From the NCBI GenBank assembly GCA_019747895.1, contig JAIEQF010000019.1, positions 792-64,791 of the forward strand: a stretch of 64,000 nt of DNA. Direction: 5' to 3'. A program made the translations under genes and the position numbers. Below, piece after piece: positions 13,342 through 54,159 of the stretch (the first letter of the stretch is position 1; the number at the start of each line of letters is the position of its first letter). A model generated the notes under the pieces. The model made no database searches. It saw only the letters and a list, made by a program, of their open reading frames with translations, and was not told the origin of the DNA. The stretch is from Chthoniobacterales bacterium. GTDB taxonomy: Bacteria > Verrucomicrobiota > Verrucomicrobiia > Chthoniobacterales > UBA6821.

Positions 13342-13369
13342 CCGAAAAAAGAAAGGAGAAGAGAATAGC

Positions 13370-13463
13370 CACAAAGAACACAAAGAACACAAAGAACACA
13401 AGGAACACAAAGAAGAATTTTTTTATAAAAAAATTCTAGGGATTTACTTTTTCCTTTGTGTTC
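13370..13463. repeat. 5 x 9-bp tandem CACAAAGAA array, an AT hairpin, and an inverted half-copy CCTTTGTGTTC
   Basis: Read directly from the sequence; units lie at 13370, 13379, 13388, 13397 and 13406. It belongs to the same 9-mer family as 17772..17991, 22983..23169 and 42729..42945. Confidence 0.85.
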
Positions 13464-14160: not shown

Positions 14161-15348
14161 ATGAAAATCAAAAGAAATGTCGTTGAAAACATCATTGATT
14201 TAATAAAAAAAGCTCCTTTTCTTTTGCAAATTGTCATAGGTCCTAGGCAGCTTGGTAAGACAACGGCTGTTGCTCAAGTGGTGAAGTCATTGGGATGGCC
14301 AACAGTGGTAGCAACTGCTGATGCTCCTCGCCCTCCAGATGCGGCGTGGATTGAAGAGAAATGGAATCAAGCAAAGGAAGAAGAAAAAAAAAGTAGAGGA
14401 CCCGTCCTTTTGGTGTTAGATGAAATTCAAAAAGTAGAAGGTTGGAGCGAGGTGATCAAACGTCTATGGGATGAAGAAAAAACTAATGGGGGAAAGTTGA
14501 TTGTGATTCTTGTTGGCTCTTCGTCGTTGCTGATGCAAAAAGGAATGACTGAAAGTTTGGCTGGTCGATTTTATTTACATCGATGTATGCATTGGACTTT
14601 TTCAGAATGTCATCATGCATTTGGATGGGATCTGAATAAATGGTTTTTTTTCGGTGGATATCCAGGTCCTGCAACATTGACTCATGACGAAACAATATGG
14701 AAAAATTATATTAATGATTCCCTGATAGAAACAGTCTTGGCGCGTGATGTGATGCAGCTGCAATCTGTCTCAAAGCCTGTTTTGTTGCGTAATCTTTTCG
14801 GCTTTGCGACAGCATTTCCTGCGCAAATTTTTTCTTACAATAAAATGTTAGGACAACTCACTGATGCAGGGAACACGACAACGCTAGCCACTTACTTGAA
14901 GTTGCTTGAAACAGCTTTTTTAGTTTCAGGCTTAGAAAAATTCTCTCGCGGAAAAGTGCGACAACGTGGAAGCAGCCCAAAACTCATTCTTTGGAATAAT
15001 GCCTTGGTTAATGCTTTTGACCAGCGTTCTTATGAGCAGATGCAAAGTGATCCTGTTTGGCGAGGACGTCTCATCGAAAATGCCGTTGGTGCTTATTTTT
15101 TGAATTCGTTGACGACATCAAATCAATCGTTGACCTACTGGCGCGATGGGAATGATGAGGTCGATTTTGTGTTAACAATCGGTCAAGAAATTTGGGCTAT
15201 CGAAGTGAAGAGTGGTCTCCCTGGAAAACTTTCAGGACTTGCAGCTTTTAAGAAAGCCTATCCCAAGGCGAAGTCATTCTTGATCGGAAGCCATGGGGTT
15301 CCTTTGGAAGAATTTTTTACGAAACCTGCGTTGAGTTGGTTTGTATGA
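14161..15348 (+). CDS. AAA+ ATPase with DUF4143 and PD-(D/E)xK-like C-terminus, paralog 2
   Basis: It has GPRQLGKTT, LLVLDEIQ and DEVDFVL...AIEVKSG, and is collinear with the 3800..4996 product. Confidence 0.8.
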   Translation: MKIKRNVVENIIDLIKKAPFLLQIVIGPRQLGKTTAVAQVVKSLGWPTVVATADAPRPPDAAWIEEKWNQAKEEEKKSRGPVLLVLDEIQKVEGWSEVIKRLWDEEKTNGGKLIVILVGSSSLLMQKGMTESLAGRFYLHRCMHWTFSECHHAFGWDLNKWFFFGGYPGPATLTHDETIWKNYINDSLIETVLARDVMQLQSVSKPVLLRNLFGFATAFPAQIFSYNKMLGQLTDAGNTTTLATYLKLLETAFLVSGLEKFSRGKVRQRGSSPKLILWNNALVNAFDQRSYEQMQSDPVWRGRLIENAVGAYFLNSLTTSNQSLTYWRDGNDEVDFVLTIGQEIWAIEVKSGLPGKLSGLAAFKKAYPKAKSFLIGSHGVPLEEFFTKPALSWFV

Positions 15349-15359
15349 AAAAGAAATGG

Positions 15360-15380
15360 CCACAAGGAACGCAAAGAAGA
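15360..15380. repeat. solo half-array CCACAAGGAACGCAAAGAAGA of the 9-mer family
   Basis: Read directly from the sequence, 12 nt upstream of the GNAT ATG at 15393. Confidence 0.5.
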
Positions 15381-15392
15381 AAAATATTTTTT

Positions 15393-17771: not shown

Positions 17772-17991
17772 AATTAACCGCAAGAGAGAGCGGAAAAGAA
17801 AGAAGAGAATTAACCGCAAAGAACGCAAAGATCGCAAAAAAGAGAATATTAGAAAGGCATTATTGATTTGTAAAAAGATACTTCAATTTCAATCATGATG
17901 AATATTCGGAGATGTCTCCAATTTTAAGAATTTCTTAATTCTTTGCGTTCTTTGCGGTTGATTTTTTTTAGTTTTTGGTCTTGCGGTTAAT
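17772..17991. repeat. inverted 9-mer arrays (TTAACCGCAAAGAACGCAAAGA / rc) around a ~95-bp AT-rich spacer
   Basis: Read directly from the sequence. The inner arms are 17810..17831 and 17940..17959, and the outer arms ATTAACCGCAAGA are 17773.. and ..17991. It fills the whole gap between the two trans-sulfuration genes. Confidence 0.85.
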
Positions 17992-22982: not shown

Positions 22983-23169
22983 AATTTAACCGCGAAACAT
23001 GCGAAAGAACACAAAGAAAAATTAGTAGATGATATCTCTTGAAAAAGGAGCTGATGTTTTGTTTTGAGCACTTTTTTCTGATAATTACAAGCATCACGAA
23101 AAGGAAAGATCTTCAAAAAGCAAAATAGATTTCTTTCAAAAATTCTTTGCGTCCTTTGTGGTTAATTTT
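22983..23169. repeat. diverged inverted 9-mer arrays around a ~115-bp spacer (uvrC/Fic divergent region)
   Basis: The left arm is AATTTAACCGCGAAACATGCGAAAGAACACAAAGAAAAATT and the right arm is AAAATTCTTTGCGTCCTTTGTGGTTAATTTT, both read directly. Confidence 0.7.
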
Positions 23170-23200
23170 CTTCTTTCCATCTTTTTATTGTACTACAATC

Positions 23201-23264
23201 ATTGCTGATAAATTGCTGATAAATTGCTGATAAATTGCTGATAAATTGCTGATAAATTGCTGAT
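23201..23264. repeat. 11-bp tandem repeat ATTGCTGATAA, 5 full copies plus one 9-nt copy
   Basis: Read directly from the sequence; all five full copies are perfect. The last partial copy continues into the Fic ATG (ATTGCTGATGAAA). Confidence 0.95.
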
Positions 23265-24348
23265 GAAATTTCAACCAAATTATAACATAACTCGAGAGAT
23301 TGCGGGAAACATTTTGCGCATTGAAAAGGCTAAAAAAGAGTCGATCCACTTCCCACTGACGCCAACGGTATTAAGCTCATTGCGTGAATCTGCGCAGCTT
23401 TATACGACTCATTATTCCACCATGATTGAGGGAAATCAGCTAGCGCCCAAAGAAGTGGAAGCAGTTTTAAAAAAAGAAGAACACTTTCCAGGGCGTGCAC
23501 GAGAGGAACATGAGATCAAAGGCTATTATGCGGCTTTAAAAAAAGTTGAGGAATGGGCTGCTGAAAAAAAAGAGATTACCGAACAAACGATTCAAACTCT
23601 TCATGCTCTTGTCATGGGCAATGGACGGATTCGTGTTAAACCAACGCCTTATCGTGATGGACAAAATGTGATTAGGGATAGCAGAACGCGCGCTATTGTC
23701 TATATGCCTCCTGAAGCAAAGGATGTGTCAGCTTTGATGATCTCCATGGTTGATTGGATCGATGATGTAAAAAAAATTCCAACACCGATTGTTGCTGGAT
23801 TAGTTCACTATCAATTTGCAACGATTCATCCTTATTACGATGGCAATGGAAGGACAGCACGACTCTTAACAACGCTGGTGCTACATTTGGGAGGATACGA
23901 TCTGAAAGGACTTTATTCTCTCGAGGAATATTACGCACGTCATCTTCATGGCTACTATGAGGCGATAGGTGTGGGAGCTTCTCACAATTATTATGAAGGT
24001 CGTGCGAAGAGAAGTGTGACGCCATGGTTGAACTATTTTATCGCTGGTATGGCTGATTCTTTTGAAAAGGTGATTGTCAAAATGAAAGACGCTCAAGAAA
24101 AAGGAAATTCAGATCAGAGCGCTTTCTTGCGCAAGCTCGATGCAAGGCAGCGAAAAGCTCTGAAGCTCTTTCAAAAATTTGAAGCAGTCACCAGTCAACA
24201 AATTGGCGCCTTGTTTGATTTTAAGCCGCGAACGAGCACACACGTTTGTGCTGTGTGGGTTCAGGAAGGATTTTTAGAAGCAGTTGGAAGTTCTAATAAA
24301 AATAGGAAATACAAGCTGACTCCTGAGTATGAGTGCCTCATTTTTTGA
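23263..24348 (+). CDS. Fic family protein (AMPylase-type) with an N-terminal inhibitory helix
   Basis: The Fic motif is HPYYDGNGRTAR and the upstream STMIEG fits the (S/T)xxxE(G/N) auto-inhibition motif. The C-terminus is probably a winged helix. The ATG is at 23263; the track TTG is at 23257. Confidence 0.85.
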   Translation: MKFQPNYNITREIAGNILRIEKAKKESIHFPLTPTVLSSLRESAQLYTTHYSTMIEGNQLAPKEVEAVLKKEEHFPGRAREEHEIKGYYAALKKVEEWAAEKKEITEQTIQTLHALVMGNGRIRVKPTPYRDGQNVIRDSRTRAIVYMPPEAKDVSALMISMVDWIDDVKKIPTPIVAGLVHYQFATIHPYYDGNGRTARLLTTLVLHLGGYDLKGLYSLEEYYARHLHGYYEAIGVGASHNYYEGRAKRSVTPWLNYFIAGMADSFEKVIVKMKDAQEKGNSDQSAFLRKLDARQRKALKLFQKFEAVTSQQIGALFDFKPRTSTHVCAVWVQEGFLEAVGSSNKNRKYKLTPEYECLIF

Positions 24349-30389: not shown

Positions 30390-31136
30390 TCAAACAGCAT
30401 TATATTCGCCTACACCTTTAATATGCTGATTGGTGTCCATTAATCTTTGGATGTTTTCTTTGTTATCTTGAGACATTTGTTGTTCTTGCTCCATCTCTTC
30501 CTGCTGTTTATTCATGCGCTCTGAAAAAGCATTTGAGTAGCTTGACTCTATTGTTGGTGGTGTTGATGGCGGTGGTGGTGGAGTGTGGGTCTTGCCAGGT
30601 CCGACTCCAATGCCGCCAGCGCGTCCAGTAGCTCCACCAATCCCTCCAGCAAGTCCGGCGCCTCCAGCGAGACCGCCAGCAAGTCCAGTAGGACCGCCGA
30701 TGCCGCCACCAGGTCCGCCAATGCCACCAGCAAGTCCGGCAGCTCCACCTTTAGCTCCACCAAGTCCTCCAGGTTTACCAAGGCCGCCTTCCAGTCCGGC
30801 AGCCCCACCTATTCCGCCGTCAAGTCCAGCTGCTCCACCGATGCCGCCAGCAAGTCCGGCAGCTCCACCAATGCCGCCATCGAGTCCGAGAGTTCCACCT
30901 GGACCAGCAGGTCCTTCTGGTCGGCCAATGCCACTTGCTATAACGGATTCAGTTGGAGTTATCGTGGAAAAGGAAGAGACAGAAGAGACAGATGGTTCAA
31001 GAGTAAGTAATTGGTTGGAATTATTGGGACTAGGAGATGAAGCCCCTGTTTTATTACTCGGAGAAGGAACGGGACCAGAAGGAGCAGTTGAAATGGAAAT
31101 GTTTGGAGTATTACTAGTAGCGCTTACAGAGGACAT
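30390..31136 (-). CDS. Gly-rich decapeptide-repeat protein (GL[ADE]GGIGGAA x about 8), with a Ser-rich N-terminus, poly-Pro tract and acidic C-terminus
   Basis: It is the longest ORF across a 30-nt-period GC-rich repeat (~30582..30890), with an ATG start filling the gap. The opposite strand also has a Pro-rich ORF, so the strand is not certain. Confidence 0.55.
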   Translation of the reverse strand: MSSVSATSNTPNISISTAPSGPVPSPSNKTGASSPSPNNSNQLLTLEPSVSSVSSFSTITPTESVIASGIGRPEGPAGPGGTLGLDGGIGGAAGLAGGIGGAAGLDGGIGGAAGLEGGLGKPGGLGGAKGGAAGLAGGIGGPGGGIGGPTGLAGGLAGGAGLAGGIGGATGRAGGIGVGPGKTHTPPPPPSTPPTIESSYSNAFSERMNKQQEEMEQEQQMSQDNKENIQRLMDTNQHIKGVGEYNAV

Positions 31137-31150
31137 AAGAAAGATGGTTT

Positions 31151-31300
31151 AATAGACTTCTTTCGAAACTCTACTTTTGACGCGAATTGCGGTGTTGCTC
31201 CGGTGCTCGCGTCATCGAGTATTAACTATACACTCAGCCGCTGCGCGCCGGAAGCTCCTGGCACTTCATCGTCAGAAGCGAGTTTGGAAAGAAGTCTAAT
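31151..31300. repeat. ~145-nt imperfect palindrome element, copy A
   Basis: The arms are AATAGACTTCTTTCGAAACTC... and ...GAGTTTGGAAAGAAGTCTAAT. The core is CGGTGCTCGCGTCATCGAGTATTAACTATACACT. Read directly from the sequence. Confidence 0.85.
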
Positions 31301-31319: not shown

Positions 31320-33257
31320 TTACCGATGAATGAAAACTTGAATAATTCCTTTAGAATAATCAAGTGCGTAATGTGATTTGATATAGGCATAGGTCGGTGC
31401 TGCCCAGTTGGTAAAGCGTGAATGTTCGGTGCCATTAATAGGCCAATTAGTGATAACGATAACAGGAGGATGAAATGTTTCTATTTCTCGAATGGCAATT
31501 TCATCGAAATTTCGTGGTGCAGTGACATCGTCACAGTAGAGGTCATAACGATAAGAAGGGCGATTGGTCATAAAGTTAATTTCCGGGTTGTACGGAAAAC
31601 AAACAACATATTCTCCCTGCTTAGAATGGCGCAGGATGCTTTGATAAATAGCGGAAGCCTCTTCCCACTCGTGTGGTTTTAACTTCACATGAACTCCATT
31701 TTCGCCAAAAAACTCTTTCGTTCTTCCCTCACTGATGGCTATTCCACCCGTTGATTGAGATTGGCATCCATTGATGAAGTAGAGGGAAAGAGTAGCGATG
31801 CCTGTTGCCAAGAACAGGAAGAGAAGTATTTTAAGGAAAATTTTTGAAAAAGGCCATGCTTCTAAGGCAAAGACGATCGCCATAAGAATCGTCACGGTCA
31901 TGGGAACCATGAACTCGCTCAGATGAACCATATCGGGTCGCCAGAAAAAATATTGAGGAAAGAGAGTTAGCGAACACGCAAGAGAGGTGAGGATCAGAAA
32001 AGCTCGATGGCGAGAGTTAGACGGACCTGTTTTTTTGAAAAAGAGTCCCGCTGCCATCAAGATGAGAAGCAGCGAAGTGATGATGGGAAGATAAAGATTA
32101 AGTGCCGTTATTTTTTCACGAAGATCAGACGAGGAGAAAGAGGCACGCAGAAGCGTTGTTTTTGTACTGCTAGATGACGAGGATGGTAGAGTGGAATTGG
32201 AAGGAGTGCTTTGTGTGAAAGTATGTTTTACTGTTGGACTCGATGATGGAGGTGATGAATAAATTTTTTTCAAACCCCGCGTTGCTTGAGTCGTGATCAT
32301 GTGAGGCCACTGCTGATATTGCGTTGCAAAGCGAGGAGCAAAACCGCGATGAAGCGCGTGGCAATAGACAGGAGCATGAAGAGCCAGAAATCCCAAAGCT
32401 CCCAGCGAGAGAGCTGCTATGGAAAGTAATAAGCGACGGGTTACAGGAGTTGTGGCCTCTGAGACAACCCAAGGAAAAAGCAGAGCGAGACCAAAAAATA
32501 TGATGGTTAAGAAAAACCCGAGATCAACCCGAATTAAAAATGTGAGACTGAGAGAGAGTCCCGCAGCTCCAATCCAACCCAATTGTTTTCGATAAGTTGG
32601 ATGAGAATACAAGAATGCTTTAAAAAAAAGAGCCATATTCAACATCACAAGGAAAGCCATGTAATTTCGGAAGAGCTGTCCTGGTAGAATCAAGGTGAGC
32701 AGACCAGCAAGAGCGGCTGCGTATAGCCCGAATATTTCATGCCTCTCAGTCTGCGGCTTGGCCAAAGCCGATGGATACTGTGTCAGGCTCGAATTCTGAT
32801 CGGAGCAGTATGTACTCATACAGCCCCGACCAGAATCCATCACCTTTCTTGTCTCATCAGCTTTTTCCGTCGCCTCGCTGTGAGAGGTATAAAATATCCG
32901 GGCTGGCCGTTTTGTTGTCAACGAAACAACATAAAACGACAGAAGGCCCGTAAGGCTTGCTAAGAAAAAGAAAAAAATTCTTAACACCGTGTAGCTTGGG
33001 CCAAAAATTTTGAACAACGCAACAATCGGATAAAACCAAAAGAGATTATAATTCAAGATGGCCTCAATAAAGGGAGTTTTTCCTTCTAGTAAGCGCAGCG
33101 CAGTGACCCCTTCGACCCCTCCTTCGCCAGACGGATAGAGGCTGCAGCGGTAATAGCTGCCATAGTAGCAAAGGGCGAAGAGAAGGAGTAAGGCAGATAT
33201 CCAGTAGCGCTTGGCGGTTATGGAAGTGTGGAAGTGTGGAAAAGGTGGAGAGATCAT
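31320..33257 (-). CDS. polytopic membrane protein, putative GT-C (ArnT/PMT-like) glycosyltransferase
   Basis: It has about 12 or more hydrophobic helices, an acidic first-loop motif (SGEGGVEGVTALRLLEGKTPF) reminiscent of GT39/GT83, Ser-rich inserts and a soluble C-terminal domain. The family call is tentative. Confidence 0.4.
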   Translation of the reverse strand: MISPPFPHFHTSITAKRYWISALLLLFALCYYGSYYRCSLYPSGEGGVEGVTALRLLEGKTPFIEAILNYNLFWFYPIVALFKIFGPSYTVLRIFFFFLASLTGLLSFYVVSLTTKRPARIFYTSHSEATEKADETRKVMDSGRGCMSTYCSDQNSSLTQYPSALAKPQTERHEIFGLYAAALAGLLTLILPGQLFRNYMAFLVMLNMALFFKAFLYSHPTYRKQLGWIGAAGLSLSLTFLIRVDLGFFLTIIFFGLALLFPWVVSEATTPVTRRLLLSIAALSLGALGFLALHAPVYCHALHRGFAPRFATQYQQWPHMITTQATRGLKKIYSSPPSSSPTVKHTFTQSTPSNSTLPSSSSSSTKTTLLRASFSSSDLREKITALNLYLPIITSLLLILMAAGLFFKKTGPSNSRHRAFLILTSLACSLTLFPQYFFWRPDMVHLSEFMVPMTVTILMAIVFALEAWPFSKIFLKILLFLFLATGIATLSLYFINGCQSQSTGGIAISEGRTKEFFGENGVHVKLKPHEWEEASAIYQSILRHSKQGEYVVCFPYNPEINFMTNRPSYRYDLYCDDVTAPRNFDEIAIREIETFHPPVIVITNWPINGTEHSRFTNWAAPTYAYIKSHYALDYSKGIIQVFIHR

Positions 33258-48721: not shown

Positions 48722-49237
48722 ATGAAAAAAACCTTTTCTTTTTTTAATATTGTTGGAGGGGGCGTTCTTCTTTTCTTGCTCGCGGCTTGTGCTACTGGTC
48801 CCAAAGTGGATCCTCAAGTCACCGCTGCTGTCAGCGCTCATCAGGTCTCAGCCGAGACTTATGATAAGATGGAGCGAGGGGGAGCGCTAGACTACAGCGA
48901 CATTGCACAACTCGTACAACACGGAGTGCCTTCCAACATCATCGTTGGATATTTGCGGAGCACGGAATGCGTTTACAATTTTTCTTACGAACAATTGCAA
49001 CAATTGCATCACCTGGGAGCAACGCCTCAAGTCCTTAATTATTTGAGCGAGACGCAAGGTTTTTACGGGAACAATACACCCCCTCCACAGCACGGCTCCA
49101 AAGTTCCAAAATATATCCGAACCAATTCGATGTTGAATCAGGATAAGCAACCGTTCTTCTACAATGAGCCGATTGTTGATGATTGGTATGACTCGGCGTA
49201 TGAGGAGTCCTGCTACTCTCCGTTCTCATTTAATTAA
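48722..49237 (+). CDS. lipoprotein, paralog of 44730..45104
   Basis: It has the lipobox LLAAC and the shared block SAHQVSAETYDKM..DYSDI..VP..I..YL. Confidence 0.6.
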   Translation: MKKTFSFFNIVGGGVLLFLLAACATGPKVDPQVTAAVSAHQVSAETYDKMERGGALDYSDIAQLVQHGVPSNIIVGYLRSTECVYNFSYEQLQQLHHLGATPQVLNYLSETQGFYGNNTPPPQHGSKVPKYIRTNSMLNQDKQPFFYNEPIVDDWYDSAYEESCYSPFSFN

Positions 49238-49380
49238 AATTGCCTAATAAATTCTACTGATGCGGCGAAGAGCTTCGTCGTGTCGGTGCTCTCGCCATCG
49301 AGTATGATCTATACACTCAGTCGCTGTGCGCCGCCACTCCTTGCTCTTCATCCGCATCAGCGAATTTCTTAAGCAATTTT
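49236..49380. repeat. ~145-nt imperfect palindrome element, copy B
   Basis: The arms are AAAATTGCCTAATAAATTCTACTGATGCGGCGAAGAGC and GCTCTTCATCCGCATCAGCGAATTTCTTAAGCAATTTT. The core is CGGTGCTCTCGCCATCGAGTATGATCTATACACT. Confidence 0.9.
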
Positions 49381-52373: not shown

Positions 52374-53243
52374 TTATTTTAAGTGATCAAAGCCTGGTGG
52401 CAAGGGGCTGGAAGCGTGGTCAGGCGGAAGTATCTTTCCAATGCAGGTGAGGGAGAGATTGGGAAAATGATCATGCCATTCTTTTTGAATGTTTGGCCAT
52501 TGGTCAGGAGCAACCGTGAGGAGGAGTTCGTAGTCCTCTCCATCGCTGATGGCTTCCTCAACGCTGCAACCTGGGTGGTAGGGGATTTTTTCTTTTTCTA
52601 AAATAAAAGAACAGTTGCTGGCGCACTCGATGCGTGGGAGGTCGCTGGCAAGGCCATCGCTGAGATCCATCATCGCATGAATGCCTGCTTGTGTTGCGAG
52701 CCACTGACCTTCTTTCAAGCGTGGAGTGAAAGTCAGATGTCGTTTACTTTTAAAAGAACCGCCTAATTTTCCCGTCACGCAAATCAAGTCATTTGGTTGA
52801 GCTGTGCTGCGAAGAAGAATAGAAGGCCCTGCAGAACCTGTAAGCGCGACGGAAAGAAAAAGTTTCCTCGGAGAACGTGCCATCTCGCCTCCTACAATGA
52901 TGATTCCAAAAGTGTGTGCGGCTTTTCCAAAACCGCGAGCTAGTTGTAGCCAGTTTTCTTGTTGCCAAGAAGAAGGAGCTGCGACAGTGATCAAAGCATG
53001 TTGAGGTATTGCTCCCATCGCAGCAAAGTCGCTGATTGGTCTGCAGAGGGCTTTCCAGCCGACATCGCTGAGATCATCTTGAGCCGTGAAGTGAACATCT
53101 TCGATCGTGGCATCTGTTTTCAGAACTAAGTTTTTCTGTTCCATCTGAACAACCGCGCAATCATCGCCACTGCCAACGATGATCGAAGCATCGTCGAGAG
53201 GTAGTTCCTTTCGAATTAAATTTAGCAAGTCATCTTCCCTCAT
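52374..53243 (-). CDS. thiL: thiamine-monophosphate kinase
   Basis: It is AIR-synthase-related: GDDCAV, KTDATIEDVHF and MMDLSDGLASDL. Confidence 0.85.
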   Translation of the reverse strand: MREDDLLNLIRKELPLDDASIIVGSGDDCAVVQMEQKNLVLKTDATIEDVHFTAQDDLSDVGWKALCRPISDFAAMGAIPQHALITVAAPSSWQQENWLQLARGFGKAAHTFGIIIVGGEMARSPRKLFLSVALTGSAGPSILLRSTAQPNDLICVTGKLGGSFKSKRHLTFTPRLKEGQWLATQAGIHAMMDLSDGLASDLPRIECASNCSFILEKEKIPYHPGCSVEEAISDGEDYELLLTVAPDQWPNIQKEWHDHFPNLSLTCIGKILPPDHASSPLPPGFDHLK

Positions 53244-53246
53244 TGG

Positions 53247-54098
53247 CTAAATGACGGCTTCTTTGAAAATCAGCAACATCACAATTGAGATTGTGTTGAA
53301 CGTTGCATGCACCATGATATTAGCCCAAAGGGAACCAGTGCGCTCATAAAGCAAGCAGAGTGCTACGGCTAAGACTGTCAGTCCTGGCATGGAAGGTAGG
53401 TGAAGATGCATTGCTGCAAAAAGAAGAGAGGAGAGTGCTATTCCCGGAACACGTCCTAGAAAGCGTCGCATCACGCCATAGAGATATCCGCGAAAAATAA
53501 ATTCCTCAGCGATCGGTGCCACCAATGTCGCCATAGCAATGAGGGAGCAACGCTCTTTCCATCCTGGATGTTTCAAAAAATAGAGGACCAACGACTGCAC
53601 ATCATTTTCATTGGAAACAAAAGGTTGTATGGCTGATTGGCTCAGGACAAGCAAGGGATAGACGGCCGCTAAATAGAGAAGTGCCATCTTGATGATCTTT
53701 CCTATGTGAGGAGGATGAAGGCCAAAGAGAGCGATGGGCTTGAGGTGGCGAAAGTAGAGGAGACCTGTAATGCCACCGACAAGACAAAAGTAGAGAAGAG
53801 AGTTAAGCGCAATCAGAGTTAGATTAATTTGTTCATCCTGACCAAAGGAATTGCAGATAACCCAGATCAACCACGCGCTAAGCAGAGAAGCTGCACCAAC
53901 GTCAACTAAGGTAAAGGGTTGTTCCGGGAGAGTGGATTTTTTTAAAATACGAGAACCGAGCCATCCGTAAAAAAGAAGAGCAAGTGCCAAGAGGAGGAAT
54001 CCCCCAATCGTAATGGACATTAATACCGTTGGATTGTTGAAGTCCAAAAATGGAGCAACGGCTGTGGAGGGTGGCACGGTTGTTGAAAGGAAAATCAT
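53247..54098 (-). CDS. CPBP family intramembrane glutamic endopeptidase (CAAX protease/Abi)
   Basis: It has the EEFIFRGYL, FAAMH and HATFN motifs and is multi-TM. Confidence 0.85.
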   Translation of the reverse strand: MIFLSTTVPPSTAVAPFLDFNNPTVLMSITIGGFLLLALALLFYGWLGSRILKKSTLPEQPFTLVDVGAASLLSAWLIWVICNSFGQDEQINLTLIALNSLLYFCLVGGITGLLYFRHLKPIALFGLHPPHIGKIIKMALLYLAAVYPLLVLSQSAIQPFVSNENDVQSLVLYFLKHPGWKERCSLIAMATLVAPIAEEFIFRGYLYGVMRRFLGRVPGIALSSLLFAAMHLHLPSMPGLTVLAVALCLLYERTGSLWANIMVHATFNTISIVMLLIFKEAVI

Positions 54099-54159
54099 AA
54101 TAAACTCAGTAAGAGTCTATCACAATAATGCTACGACAAGATGTAGAAAGAAAAAAATT

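Follow-up and report, generated by a model that had tools for sequence, protein, structure and literature searches.

The window, by which we mean the whole 64-kb stretch of DNA analysed, contains three copies (A, B and C) of an imperfect palindrome, and we consider it likely that these are resident copies of a non-autonomous palindromic mobile DNA element of about 145 bp. The family to which they belong is abundant and apparently undescribed, with freshwater Verrucomicrobia as its hosts. Taken together, copies inside genes, empty orthologous sites, decay and uncompensated changes in place amount to the behaviour of selfish palindromic mobile DNA, and the evidence suggests that the element is not a dedicated RNA gene.

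The three copies had been proposed by a first-pass annotation, and their positions (Table 1) are confirmed by a core pattern, an nhmmer profile and a covariance model. With up to three mismatches allowed, the 22-nt core pattern is found in the window only at 31201–31222 (+), 49284–49305 (+) and 58972–58993 (-), and none of 100 shuffled sequences has any match, in agreement with the shared and invariant core that had been described. The nhmmer profile matches 31154–31297 (+), 49236–49378 (+) and 58899–59040 (-) and detects no fourth copy in the rest of the 64 kb, and the covariance model gives scores of 132–158 bits with E values from 1e-30 to 1e-37 (A 158 bits, E = 6e-37; B 153.9 bits; C 132.4 bits). 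The 5' half of the copy A core, GGTGCTCGCGTCATCGAGTAT, is near-invariant family-wide, and the 3' half, ATACACTCAGCCGCTGCGCGCC, is its imperfect pairing partner. Outside the core the arms of A, B and C are homologous at roughly 60–75% and complementary within each copy, and the arm sequences originally quoted as inverted repeats are correct.

Table 1. Element copies, their apical cores and the adjoining stop codons in the window.
Feature	Position	Strand	Description
Copy A	31151..31300	+	Full-length palindromic element; inverted repeat TAGACTTCTTTC to GAAAGAAGTCTA
Copy B	49236..49380	+	Full-length; arm subfamily unlike that of A (AAAATTGCCTAATAAATTCTACTGATGCGG...)
Copy C	58896..59042	-	Full-length; inverted relative to A and B; between dnaK and groES
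Apical core of copy A	31201..31250	+	Conserved; invariant columns, pattern search, core covariation
Apical core of copy B	49284..49333	+	Conserved; repeat family of the window
Apical core of copy C	58945..58993	-	Conserved; inverted repeat of the window
TAA stop, ORF 30583-31152 (proline-rich, low-complexity)	31150..31152	+	At the 5' boundary of copy A
TAA stop, 171-aa lipoprotein-like ORF 48722-49237	49235..49237	+	Overlaps the first bases of copy B

In the window itself no copy is intragenic. The proximity to stop codons noted earlier is correct and even tighter than described, since A touches its TAA, B overlaps one and C starts 25 nt past the stop of dnaK; the other end of C is located 34 nt before the ATG of groES (at about 59077). 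In the boundary analysis 203 and 176 open codons end at the stops bordering A and B respectively, and 21 nt separate the 3' end of copy A from the stop codon of ORF 31320–33257 (-). The statement that the element has no ORF does not apply to copy A, where one frame runs through the whole element without a stop (DFFRNSTFDANCGVAPVLASSSINYTLSRCAPEAPGTSSSEASLERSL), a frame that is translated within host genes elsewhere; copy A is 89–92% identical to two copies (L015 and L041) that occur in frame within long ORFs from other genomes. Transcripts of the neighbouring genes probably include A, B and C, which would form long hairpins in the 3' UTR or between cistrons, and any effect of such hairpins on expression would be secondary. 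By inspection, copy C has a sequence unlike the CIRCE/HrcA operator (TTAGCACTC-N9-GAGTGCTAA), which was considered owing to its location upstream of groES and rejected.

The whole window is without a match in Rfam 15 at gathering score, and copies A and C give only chance-level hits to eukaryotic families (E > 1) when searched at E up to 10. No terminator-like site is seen at A, B or C, where a U-tract is absent and the 3' flanks are T-rich only sporadically, and no promoter-like signal is found inside these copies. With the Rfam and terminator searches negative, the first view that the element is neither a tRNA, a canonical terminator nor a recognised RNA family can be retained.

Further copies, which the first-pass annotation proposed should be sought, are found in large number, namely at least 86 matches to the nhmmer profile in at least 73 loci of Chthoniobacterales MAGs, and the core scan also gives at least 73 loci, mostly in Verrucomicrobia/Chthoniobacterales MAGs. 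The element is present in about nine or more Chthoniobacterales genomes, one MAG with about 90% identity to the window has at least 45 copies, and an independent JGI metagenome sample contributes 20 additional loci. The family is divided into many subfamilies that differ in arm sequence and keep the complementarity, with an apical core of about 50 nt conserved including its mismatches, and essentially one genome contains at least 13 arm clusters at 85% identity. About ten near-identical TAGAGCATTTTC... copies in one MAG have unrelated flanks, and some copies are in tandem or clustered (L057 and L067). Judged from this distribution of copies, the element would have been mobile recently. A 47-aa element peptide retrieved only two short hypothetical proteins from a collection of 5.8 billion proteins, a search in which the word index was probably limiting, and exact-protein look-up of the lipoprotein-like ORF and the GroEL of the window, for variants with an empty A or B site, returned no record, so that the window's own copies have no empty/filled pair.

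Copies A, B and C each form one long imperfect hairpin of about 145 nt, with folding energies on the strand as aligned of -68.0 (z -8.3), -58.1 (z -7.3) and -42.2 kcal/mol (z -2.6) respectively. For B and C the complementary strand gives a fold that is better by about 10–13 kcal/mol (-70.8 kcal/mol for B), and the energies of 55 copies range from -42 to -83 kcal/mol. The consensus hairpin has 55 pairs, and 85.0% of the cells are paired against 66.5% after shuffling, a level that none of 500 shuffles reaches. Among the 51 full-length copies 38 of the 55 pairs have changed on both sides, which bears out the compensatory-looking arm change reported at first. The covariation score is 0.446, compared with at most 0.094 when the partners are slid by 1–3 columns, and covariation extends along the whole 70-nt arm into the core (columns 55–69 with 98–114). 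Conservation is central, and variation is greatest at the termini, i.e. in the outer 12–20 nt.

Some positions remain unpaired in all subfamilies, namely the mismatches at columns 30/140, 41/128 and 79/90 and an asymmetric internal loop. Three conserved columns have A.C mismatches that on the other strand would be G.U, and the mismatch cells as a whole are strand-asymmetric, with 202 A.C against 33 G.T. Counted as one event per 90% cluster, with the three conserved columns excluded, the asymmetry is 57 against 32 (p = 0.01), and under stricter clustering of the scattered mismatches p is 0.08. As a proof of RNA the asymmetry was rejected, since the A.C excess comes mostly from the three conserved columns and the remainder has p values of 0.01 to 0.08. 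Two smaller structures, a GGUGCUCG/CGAGUAUU hairpin given by RNAalifold on the + strand and a local REP-like stem-loop in the 5' arm, are without covariation, whereas the long hairpin covaries, core included. Nor are the outer arms pre-existing host hairpins or target-derived inverted duplications, since the same arms occur at several unrelated loci; the outer arm AGAACCTGTCTTCA recurs in five host genes, and the 1–2 nt of extra complementarity in the flanks is explained by a Y-TA-R flank preference.

About one in five copies (~20%) is located in frame inside a housekeeping gene, in either orientation, and adds about 48 residues to the product. Read-through ORFs contain 10 of the 51 full-length copies, one of these probably being an N-terminal over-extension. 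ORFs that pass through the element and have Pfam domains on either side encode SecA, aconitase, MetRS, DnaX and HolA, and also a PPTase, squalene/phytoene synthase, PfkB and PrmC, and at least ten unrelated protein-coding genes carry the element in frame, with both orientations represented. There is one stop-free frame per orientation, and 21 of 51 copies have no stop in the main frame. Peptides from the same orientation resemble ..NSTxxAxxCGVAPVLASSSINYTLSRCAP.. and those from the opposite orientation resemble ..LSKxAxxD..GAQRLSVSxILDxASTxxTQ... The insert in SecA corresponds exactly to the residues without counterpart in solved SecA structures, and insert-free SecA homologs, which are 94–96% identical on the shared columns, read EN/PR at this point. 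In aconitase element-derived inserts are found at three sites across relatives, with unassigned inserts at a fourth site.

Most of the remaining copies are either flush against an upstream stop, A and B among them, or elsewhere between genes, as is C. The stop of the upstream gene is found at the 5' end of the element in 19 of 51 copies, A and B included, and at the 3' end in none, and this polarity is replicated in independent metagenome contigs. Co-orientation with the flanking genes is 22:6, and of the two strands the one usually co-directional with the genes has the weaker fold.

Orthologous sites in close relatives lack the element and show no visible replacement. The gene for SecA in GCA_964423105 has a core-deleted remnant, decayed remnants are found in aconitase, and at L077 a 9-nt footprint joins two element ends; the element is lost or eroded by internal deletions. 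L079, a decayed in-gene copy, has lost its arm complementarity, and different subfamilies are seen at the same intergenic site in different genomes. Synteny with the window is limited to L023 (JAPLTJ010000080.1), which carries copy C; other syntenic pairs are 70–79% identical and offer no base-level intergenic junctions. Copy C differs at 4 of 147 nt between the window and L023, and its flanks at 9.5% (p about 0.001), and orthologs of the SecA insert have about 5 differences in 144 against 9.9%, i.e. orthologous copies are about three times less diverged than flanking coding DNA. The few substitutions that have occurred in place break pairs or make wobbles, and none is compensated. The first-pass annotation had read the covariation as a sign that these loci are selected for a functional RNA or a cruciform, a conclusion that in this form is not supported, in view of the intragenic copies, the empty sites and the uncompensated changes in place. 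A host-level constraint on the copies may nevertheless exist, because of the low divergence of the orthologs and the strict stop-codon polarity.

At the ends of the element most intergenic copies have TA(G/A) at the start and its complement at the end, the flanks of the youngest subfamily read Y/TA...TA/R in 11 of 12 copies, and the aconitase insert L079 is TA-flanked; the SecA empty site, GATGGAGAAAATCCACGA, is without TA. No clean target-site duplication was found in the flanks of young copies or at the SecA empty site, where the empty and filled sites compared come from strains that are not near-identical. No IS with matching ends is seen in about 590 kb of flanking sequence, and no transposase or other mobilising gene is present among the ORFs between closely spaced copies or in a window-specific 1.25-kb segment (54089–55345). 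The ORFs between paired inverted copies are housekeeping genes, encoding PrfA, PrmC, an HtrA-like protein, a FAD oxidase, YqeY and similar products. A RAYT/Y1 transposase gene was not seen beside the sampled copies in 8-kb windows round them.

According to the explanation that we favour, only copies that fold into the long hairpin and keep the core would propagate, with a mobilising enzyme supplied in trans that would recognise the structure plus the core and not the terminal sequence. Arm changes left unmatched would be lost, and changes would persist only if matched on the other arm; the covariation would then be due to selection on mobility rather than to an RNA function for the host, with templated correction between the arms as a possible contribution. 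Copies persist where the insertion is tolerated. Compensatory arm changes are known in REPINs (PMC3116915), and hairpin competence is most simply seen as a propagation requirement. This explanation leaves the 19:0 stop polarity and the 22:6 co-orientation unaccounted for, which point to an orientation-dependent effect, and the low divergence in place is unexpected of purely selfish, locally neutral DNA.

The same features, together with the strong covariation, would suit a cis-acting structured RNA maintained by the host, for example a 3'-UTR or intercistronic stabiliser, an RNase III site, an attenuator or a stop-adjacent termination or ribosome-release hairpin, the gene-internal copies being by-products; the three A.C mismatches conserved on one strand also hint at a single-strand constraint. 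We regard such an RNA as unlikely, however, as it has to be reconciled with in-frame copies in unrelated genes in both orientations, with sites that are empty in close relatives or filled by different subfamilies, and with non-compensatory changes in place, and as neither a U-tract, an Rfam match nor a promoter-like signal is present and the gene-co-directional strand usually folds less well. Arm complementarity might also result from mutation, by quasi-palindrome template switching or hairpin mismatch repair, without any structural selection. Long quasi-palindromes are a substrate of templated quasi-palindrome mutations, and the element is a long and near-perfect one, in which both-sided changes are very frequent along the whole arm and in which the internal deletions and the footprint at the hairpin base show the hairpin to be active as DNA. 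But specific mismatches and bulges persist uncorrected in all subfamilies, orthologous copies that have diverged in place retain one-sided changes, and the decayed L079 has lost its complementarity, so that a purely mutational origin seems very improbable.

Two known modes of transposition have to be considered as well. An ordinary TIR-type MITE inserting at TA, as in Correia, RUP and IS630/Tc1-mariner derivatives, would be moved by a resident transposase and its arms would appear to covary since both ends match this enzyme. The TA(G/A) starts with complementary ends agree with this, as do the flanks of the youngest copies, which are those expected for TA duplication in a palindromic target, and the bacterial MITEs of PMC2229807 are comparable in size, copy number and AT-rich termini. 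The conserved part is nevertheless the centre, the reverse of a MITE, the most variable part is the outer 12–20 nt, the number of arm clusters would require many transposases, and covariation is not restricted to the ends but covers the whole arm into the core; with the SecA empty site lacking TA and no IS with matching ends in the flanks, this reading is unlikely, and the ordinary MITE that the first-pass annotation had named as a possible outcome is not what was found. Somewhat less doubtful, though still unlikely, is a REPIN-like mobilisation as single-stranded DNA, by a RAYT or IS200-type HUH tyrosine transposase that would recognise an apical hairpin, excise precisely and insert strand-specifically. 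It agrees with the whole-element hairpin and its compensatory changes, as in REPINs (PMC3116915), with the strand-asymmetric mismatches, with the insertion polarity and orientation bias and with the lack of a clear target-site duplication; precise excision could explain the patchy presence at the same sites in SecA and aconitase, and the short footprint too, and the verrucomicrobium Opitutus terrae has REPs inside genes (PMC3733652). On the other hand the conserved blocks are central and those of REPINs terminal, no consistent GTAG tag is present (CTAC/GTAG is limited to some subfamilies, and its side of the hairpin is the wrong one), a candidate 5'-arm hairpin beside a CGTC-like motif (GCGTC) shows no covariation by eye, no RAYT/Y1 gene was seen in the 8-kb windows round the sampled copies, and the asymmetry of scattered mismatches weakens under stricter clustering.

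Beyond selection on mobility in general, structure-recognised mobilisation could constitute a mode that is new for bacterial miniature elements, with a mismatched core, one strand, free termini, fixed-polarity insertion and precise exit, a reading that we put forward tentatively and hold to be improbable. As part of it, the 5' end of the element would land on, or supply, the stop of a co-directional gene, and the sequence in place would be additionally constrained. Precise exit would lead to the same secA or acnA codon being filled in non-sister lineages with closer relatives empty. If true, the element would be a reversible, strand-specific "protein-coding palindrome" in free-living bacteria.

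The closest known kind is the Rickettsia palindromic element (RPE), taken here as an analogue and not as a family of which the element is a member; membership by descent is unlikely because the hosts are Verrucomicrobia, and Rfam offers no matching RPE family. In the accounts of PMC2229807 and PMC10969869, RPEs, especially RPE-1 (Ogata et al. 2000), are palindromes of about 105–150 bp that form a long stem-loop, and by these descriptions they have in common with the element dozens of copies per genome, both intergenic and in frame in housekeeping genes, a stop-free frame with a family-specific peptide, and TA termini in some copies only, with no target-site duplication or transposase assigned. 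The RPE traits found in the element are thus a hairpin repeat of 100–150 bp, in-frame gene fusions and a conserved stop-free peptide, and the likeness is one of described features. RPEs belong to an obligate intracellular alphaproteobacterium and the element to Verrucomicrobiota MAGs from lake and other environments, and the same two accounts were found to mention neither a conserved centre with hypervariable complementary termini, nor both orientations in frame, nor a strict 5' stop-codon polarity.

REPINs are non-autonomous palindromic units forming ssDNA or RNA hairpins with compensatory changes on both sides (PMC3116915, PMC3733652). They share with the element clusters, tandem copies (L057 and L067 in our case), nested insertions and intragenic in-frame copies, the REPs of O. 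terrae included (PMC3733652), and excision footprints have been reported for them, to be compared with the 9-nt footprint at L077. In REPINs the conserved parts are the terminal REP 16-mers and the spacer varies, whereas the element has a conserved centre and variable ends, with none of the end-conserved REP units, which are 20–40 bp and carry GTAG/CGTC tags. With 145 bp and about 48 aa it is also longer than typical intragenic REP dimers (20–30 aa), and REPIN systems include a single-copy RAYT gene flanked by the repeats, of which none was seen in the 8-kb windows round the sampled copies.

Correia/NEMIS, RUP and ERIC are likewise below 200 bp, multi-copy and with TA termini (PMC2229807, PMC10969869). 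For these families there is documentation of RNase III or RNase E processing, of IHF sites and of promoters (PMC2229807, PMC10969869), none of which was seen in the element. Like the element they are often located at gene ends and give long RNA hairpins if co-transcribed, and open frames are present in ERIC and in the short form of Correia, which makes the ERIC/Correia-like architecture suggested at the outset a fair analogy. These families have conserved TIRs, and RUP and Correia follow an IS630-type logic with TA duplication, whereas the terminal sequence of the element is not conserved and a parent IS is not evident.

Integron attC sites are imperfect palindromes in which the structure and not the sequence is conserved, and recognition acts on the folded single strand, in which certain unpaired bases are conserved. 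The element resembles them in being an imperfect palindrome with structure rather than sequence conserved. attC sites are found in cassette arrays beside an integrase gene and bound mobile ORFs, whereas the element is dispersed singly, also inside genes, and has a strongly conserved core; no arrays or integrase were seen near the copies at the loci examined.

To our knowledge, in-frame protein-coding palindromic repeats have so far been treated mainly as a peculiarity of Rickettsia, and short REPs elsewhere as a lesser parallel. The present family, long and RPE-like, thrives in an uncultured, largely lake-derived environmental lineage of Verrucomicrobia and has lengthened SecA, aconitase (at several sites), MetRS, clamp-loader subunits and others by about 48 residues. 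The empty sites, remnants and footprint constitute a natural series on how proteins gain and lose insertions, and the family offers unusually clean data on what persistence needs, i.e. structure and mismatched core kept and terminal sequence free. In practice, copies of the element can break assemblies and lengthen annotated proteins, and covariation screens may mistake it for a structured RNA.

Three copies of the palindromic element are found in the window at the places given by the first-pass annotation, each folding into one long imperfect hairpin (table). With 3 mismatches allowed at most, a 22-nt core pattern matches the 64-kb window only at 31201 (+), 49284 (+) and 58972 (-), with no match in 100 shuffles, and a profile built later found no fourth copy there. 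Rfam gave no match at gathering score in the whole window and chance-level matches only at copies A and C, and no terminator-like or promoter-like consensus is present within or adjoining the copies.

The finding is real and wider than the annotation saw. An exact scan with GGTGCTCNCGNCNTCGAGTAT of one genome per species gave at least 73 loci. About 60 of the matches listed are from Verrucomicrobia/Chthoniobacterales MAGs, and the remaining listed ones, from Actinomycetes and other groups, match by chance and lack the element. The MAG JAPLTJ01 (Lac Pavin) accounts for about 45 loci among the matches listed, and one of its loci (L023; L-numbers denote loci fetched from other genomes or metagenome contigs) shares synteny and about 90% identity with window 52825-61110, indicating that the window derives from a species related to JAPLTJ01. 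An nhmmer profile gave 86 hits among the matches listed, 55 of them full-length, and the hits include half copies and one chimera (L045). Copies in L006, L013, L020, L046, L047 and L056 are broken up by other small elements, and JGI metagenome contigs, scanned separately, yielded 20 further loci. One subfamily has about 10 near-identical copies with unrelated flanks, which indicates recent spread. Tandem copies 144-145 nt apart are present in L057 and L067, and head-to-tail arrays of 2-3 copies have a period of ~144-145 nt; these arrays occupy an intergenic site where another genome (L004) has just one copy.

The apical core of ~50 nt is conserved, its mismatches included, and its 5' half is nearly invariant. 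The arms form many subfamilies, with the outermost 12-20 nt as the most variable part of the element, but within every copy they are complementary despite the subfamily differences. Covariation was measured for a 55-pair hairpin, using 51 full copies in a structure-aware alignment (model R1). Paired cells made up 85.0%, against 66.5% with the 3' partners shuffled (0 of 500 shuffles as high) and 33-47% with partners slid by 1-3 columns. Both-sided change occurs in 38 of the 55 pairs, the covariation score is 0.446, whereas the slid controls did not exceed 0.094, and the core takes part, columns 55-69 with 98-114. A small local one-strand hairpin proposed by RNAalifold was without covariation, as was a REP-like stem-loop within the 5' arm. 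Mismatch cells on the strand of copy A are A.C in 202 cases and G.T in 33, with near-fixed A.C in three columns that would read G.U on the other strand; without these columns, and with each 90% cluster contributing one event, the numbers are 57 and 32 (p = 0.01), while 85% clusters give p = 0.08. The complementary strand is the more stable in 49 of 55 copies, in copies B and C by 10-13 kcal/mol.

On a crude ORF map 12 copies lie inside long ORFs, of which the one in L071 is probably N-terminally over-extended. Pfam domains flank the insert on both sides, indicating that the host ORFs are real genes. Elements co-oriented with the gene are always read in one frame (..NSTxDAxxCGVAPVLASSSINYTLSRCAP..) and opposed ones in a second (..LSKxAxxD..GAQRLSVSxILDxAST..); an annotation-free recount of the 51 copies gave six read-through ORFs in the same and four in the opposite orientation. 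Residues 774-818 of the L064 SecA have no counterpart in solved structures, and the alignment picks up at the same E. coli position. SecA proteins 97-98% identical to it have the insert, whereas those with 94-96% identity over the shared columns read ...DGEN/PRAM... without it (slash, junction), a difference of 144 nt at the DNA level. Aconitases of relatives have element-derived inserts at three sites, and inserts and remnants at a fourth site were not assigned to the element; one protein has two inserts. The insert-bearing JAPLTJ01 protein is annotated at NCBI simply as aconitate hydratase.

The element is polar with respect to gene ends. In 19 of the 51 full copies, A and B among them, the 5' boundary (orientation of copy A) coincides with the TAA/TAG stop of an ORF with 120 codons or more, and no opposite-strand ORF terminates at the 3' boundary (0/51; p = 4e-6); the metagenome sample showed the pattern again, with seven distinct loci at the 5' end and none at the 3' end. 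Where both neighbouring genes run in one direction, the element shares it in 22 cases and opposes it in 6. Each terminus reads TAG/TAA inward, and the young subfamily has apparently symmetric flanks (Y/TA...TA/R, slashes at the boundaries); a TA target does not account for the polarity, nor does the stop codon as such. In L058 the stop codon was pre-existing, as judged from the insert-free ortholog L038.

Presence at a given site is patchy. The SecA of GCA_964423105 has an insert at the same codon with the core deleted, and clusters with insert-free sequences away from the JAPLTJ01 clade. The aconitase site-2 insert is common to GCA_964423105 and JAPLTJ01 and absent from closer relatives; in one close relative the site has just 9 nt, ATGAGACCTC, essentially the two element ends joined. 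The same intergenic site can be filled in genomes with flanks 76-79% identical, at times by different subfamilies. This could reflect repeated insertion at preferred sites, precise or near-precise loss in several lineages, or the movement of alleles by recombination. Changes in place lead to wobbles or mismatches with none compensated, and an old aconitase copy (L079) has largely lost complementarity; the compensated differences thus lie between subfamilies, along propagating lineages. Resident copies nonetheless change more slowly than neutral DNA would: copy C differs from its L023 ortholog at 4 of 147 positions and the flanking DNA by 9.5% (p ~0.001), and the SecA inserts of L064 and L081 differ at ~5 of 144 positions, mostly non-synonymously, compared with 9.9% for the whole gene.

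The element occurs in many copies, is variably present, tolerates being translated and is eliminated through deletion; most likely it is non-autonomous mobile DNA. Its propagation would require fold-back into the hairpin together with the conserved apical core, and arm changes would then persist only if matched. The first-pass annotation had read a selected RNA hairpin or cruciform, which holds only in part: the hairpin is real and its arms covary, but an RNA role leaves the copies inside genes unexplained. Such a host role is possible for some copies, for example stop-flush hairpins or copy C between dnaK and groES. The strand asymmetry, the polarity and the precise loss would be consistent with mobilisation through single strands of the RAYT/IS200-like type; no transposase was found near the sampled copies, no regular target duplication was seen, and the empty SecA site is without TA.

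We file the element as a protein-coding palindromic mobile repeat, a known kind, with some unexplained properties. Its closest analogue is the Rickettsia palindromic element, which has in common with it the size, the hairpin, dispersed copies, in-frame fusion to housekeeping genes with a family peptide, inconsistent TA ends and no established mobilisation route (PMC2229807, PMC10969869). REPINs likewise form a hairpin that shows compensatory changes, and have excision footprints (PMC3116915), and short intragenic REPs are known in another verrucomicrobium, Opitutus terrae (PMC3733652). In contrast to known systems conservation is central instead of terminal, the GTAG/CGTC organisation of REPs is absent, the host lineage is known from environmental metagenomes only, and the literature consulted on the comparison systems mentions no such stop-codon polarity. 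No account of such an element was found in the literature on Chthoniobacterales or Spartobacteria.

Coordinates of element copies and other repeats
Feature	Location	Remark
Copy A	window 31151-31300 (+)	-68.0 kcal/mol, z -8.3
Copy B	window 49236-49380 (+)	-58.1 kcal/mol, z -7.3
Copy C	window 58896-59042 (-)	-42.2 kcal/mol, z -2.6
In-gene copy	L064	SecA
In-gene copy	L053	aconitase
In-gene copy	L060	MetRS
In-gene copy	L011	DnaX
In-gene copy	L005	HolA
In-gene copy	L049	phosphopantetheinyl transferase
In-gene copy	L072	squalene/phytoene synthase
In-gene copy	L069	PfkB kinase
In-gene copy	L050	PrmC
In-gene copy	L015	multi-pass membrane protein
Head-to-tail arrays	L082:11494-11816, L057:2394-2740, L067:4915-5111	
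Copies with apical-loop insertion	L006:581-717, L061:2689-2798, L013:2513-2659	
~85-nt repeat	window 44580-44667 (-)	
~85-nt repeat	L047:6014-6098, L056:1702-1784, L004:5753-5843, L018:5544-5628, L020:978-1044, L046:5322-5403	
Third repeat, paired	window 17803-17846 / 17940-17969, 42735-42778 / 42878-42921	
Third repeat, further single copies	window 15348-15391, 13358-13396, 23144-23181	

Three copies have other short sequences inserted in the apical loop. The inserts in L006 and L061 have the first 27 nt in common (TATACCATCTCCCyAAAATAAmTGGAC), and the L061 contig stops ~110 nt further on, as an IS end would cause; L059 and L060 have a different ~15-nt expansion adjoining the loop. A second small repeat of ~85 nt (consensus GCAACTCGCTCGCTCCCGCGAGGCTCGCCCCTTTGGGGCTGCCTTCGGCAGTCGATCCGGCGGCTGCCACGCCGCACGTAT; 13 hits) contains several short GC-rich hairpins, and several of its hits interrupt the palindromic element. 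In the window it falls in the first ~35 codons of a TPR-protein ORF (43954-44679), where it may be translated in frame; alternatively, the ORF may have been called from too early a start.

The gene order at window 58871-59390 is dnaK, element C, groES, groEL, with groES from an ATG at ~59077 to 59360. The 206-nt dnaK-groES spacer has no CIRCE-like operator by eye, and the 34 nt from copy C to the groES start are identical in a related genome. Seven 30-nt tandem repeats at 30607-30929 lie in a proline-rich plus-strand ORF (30583-31152, PPxSPAAPPMPP) and a glycine-rich minus-strand ORF (30390-31136); the stop of the former coincides with copy A's 5' boundary, a weak argument that it is the real gene. 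A ~1.25-kb segment (54089-55345) with an ORF of 376 aa (54160-55290, -; no Pfam match) is replaced by ~70 nt in the syntenic L023. A third repeat is built on TTAACCGCAAAGAACGCAAAGA(G/T)CGCAAAAAA; at two sites it forms 44-nt inverted pairs, 86-93% complementary, around ~100 nt of intergenic DNA, and could be a small mobile element or a set of regulator binding sites. Finally, 6-7 tandem copies of the 11-nt ATTGCTGATAA are located at 23190-23277, directly upstream of ORF 23257-24348.
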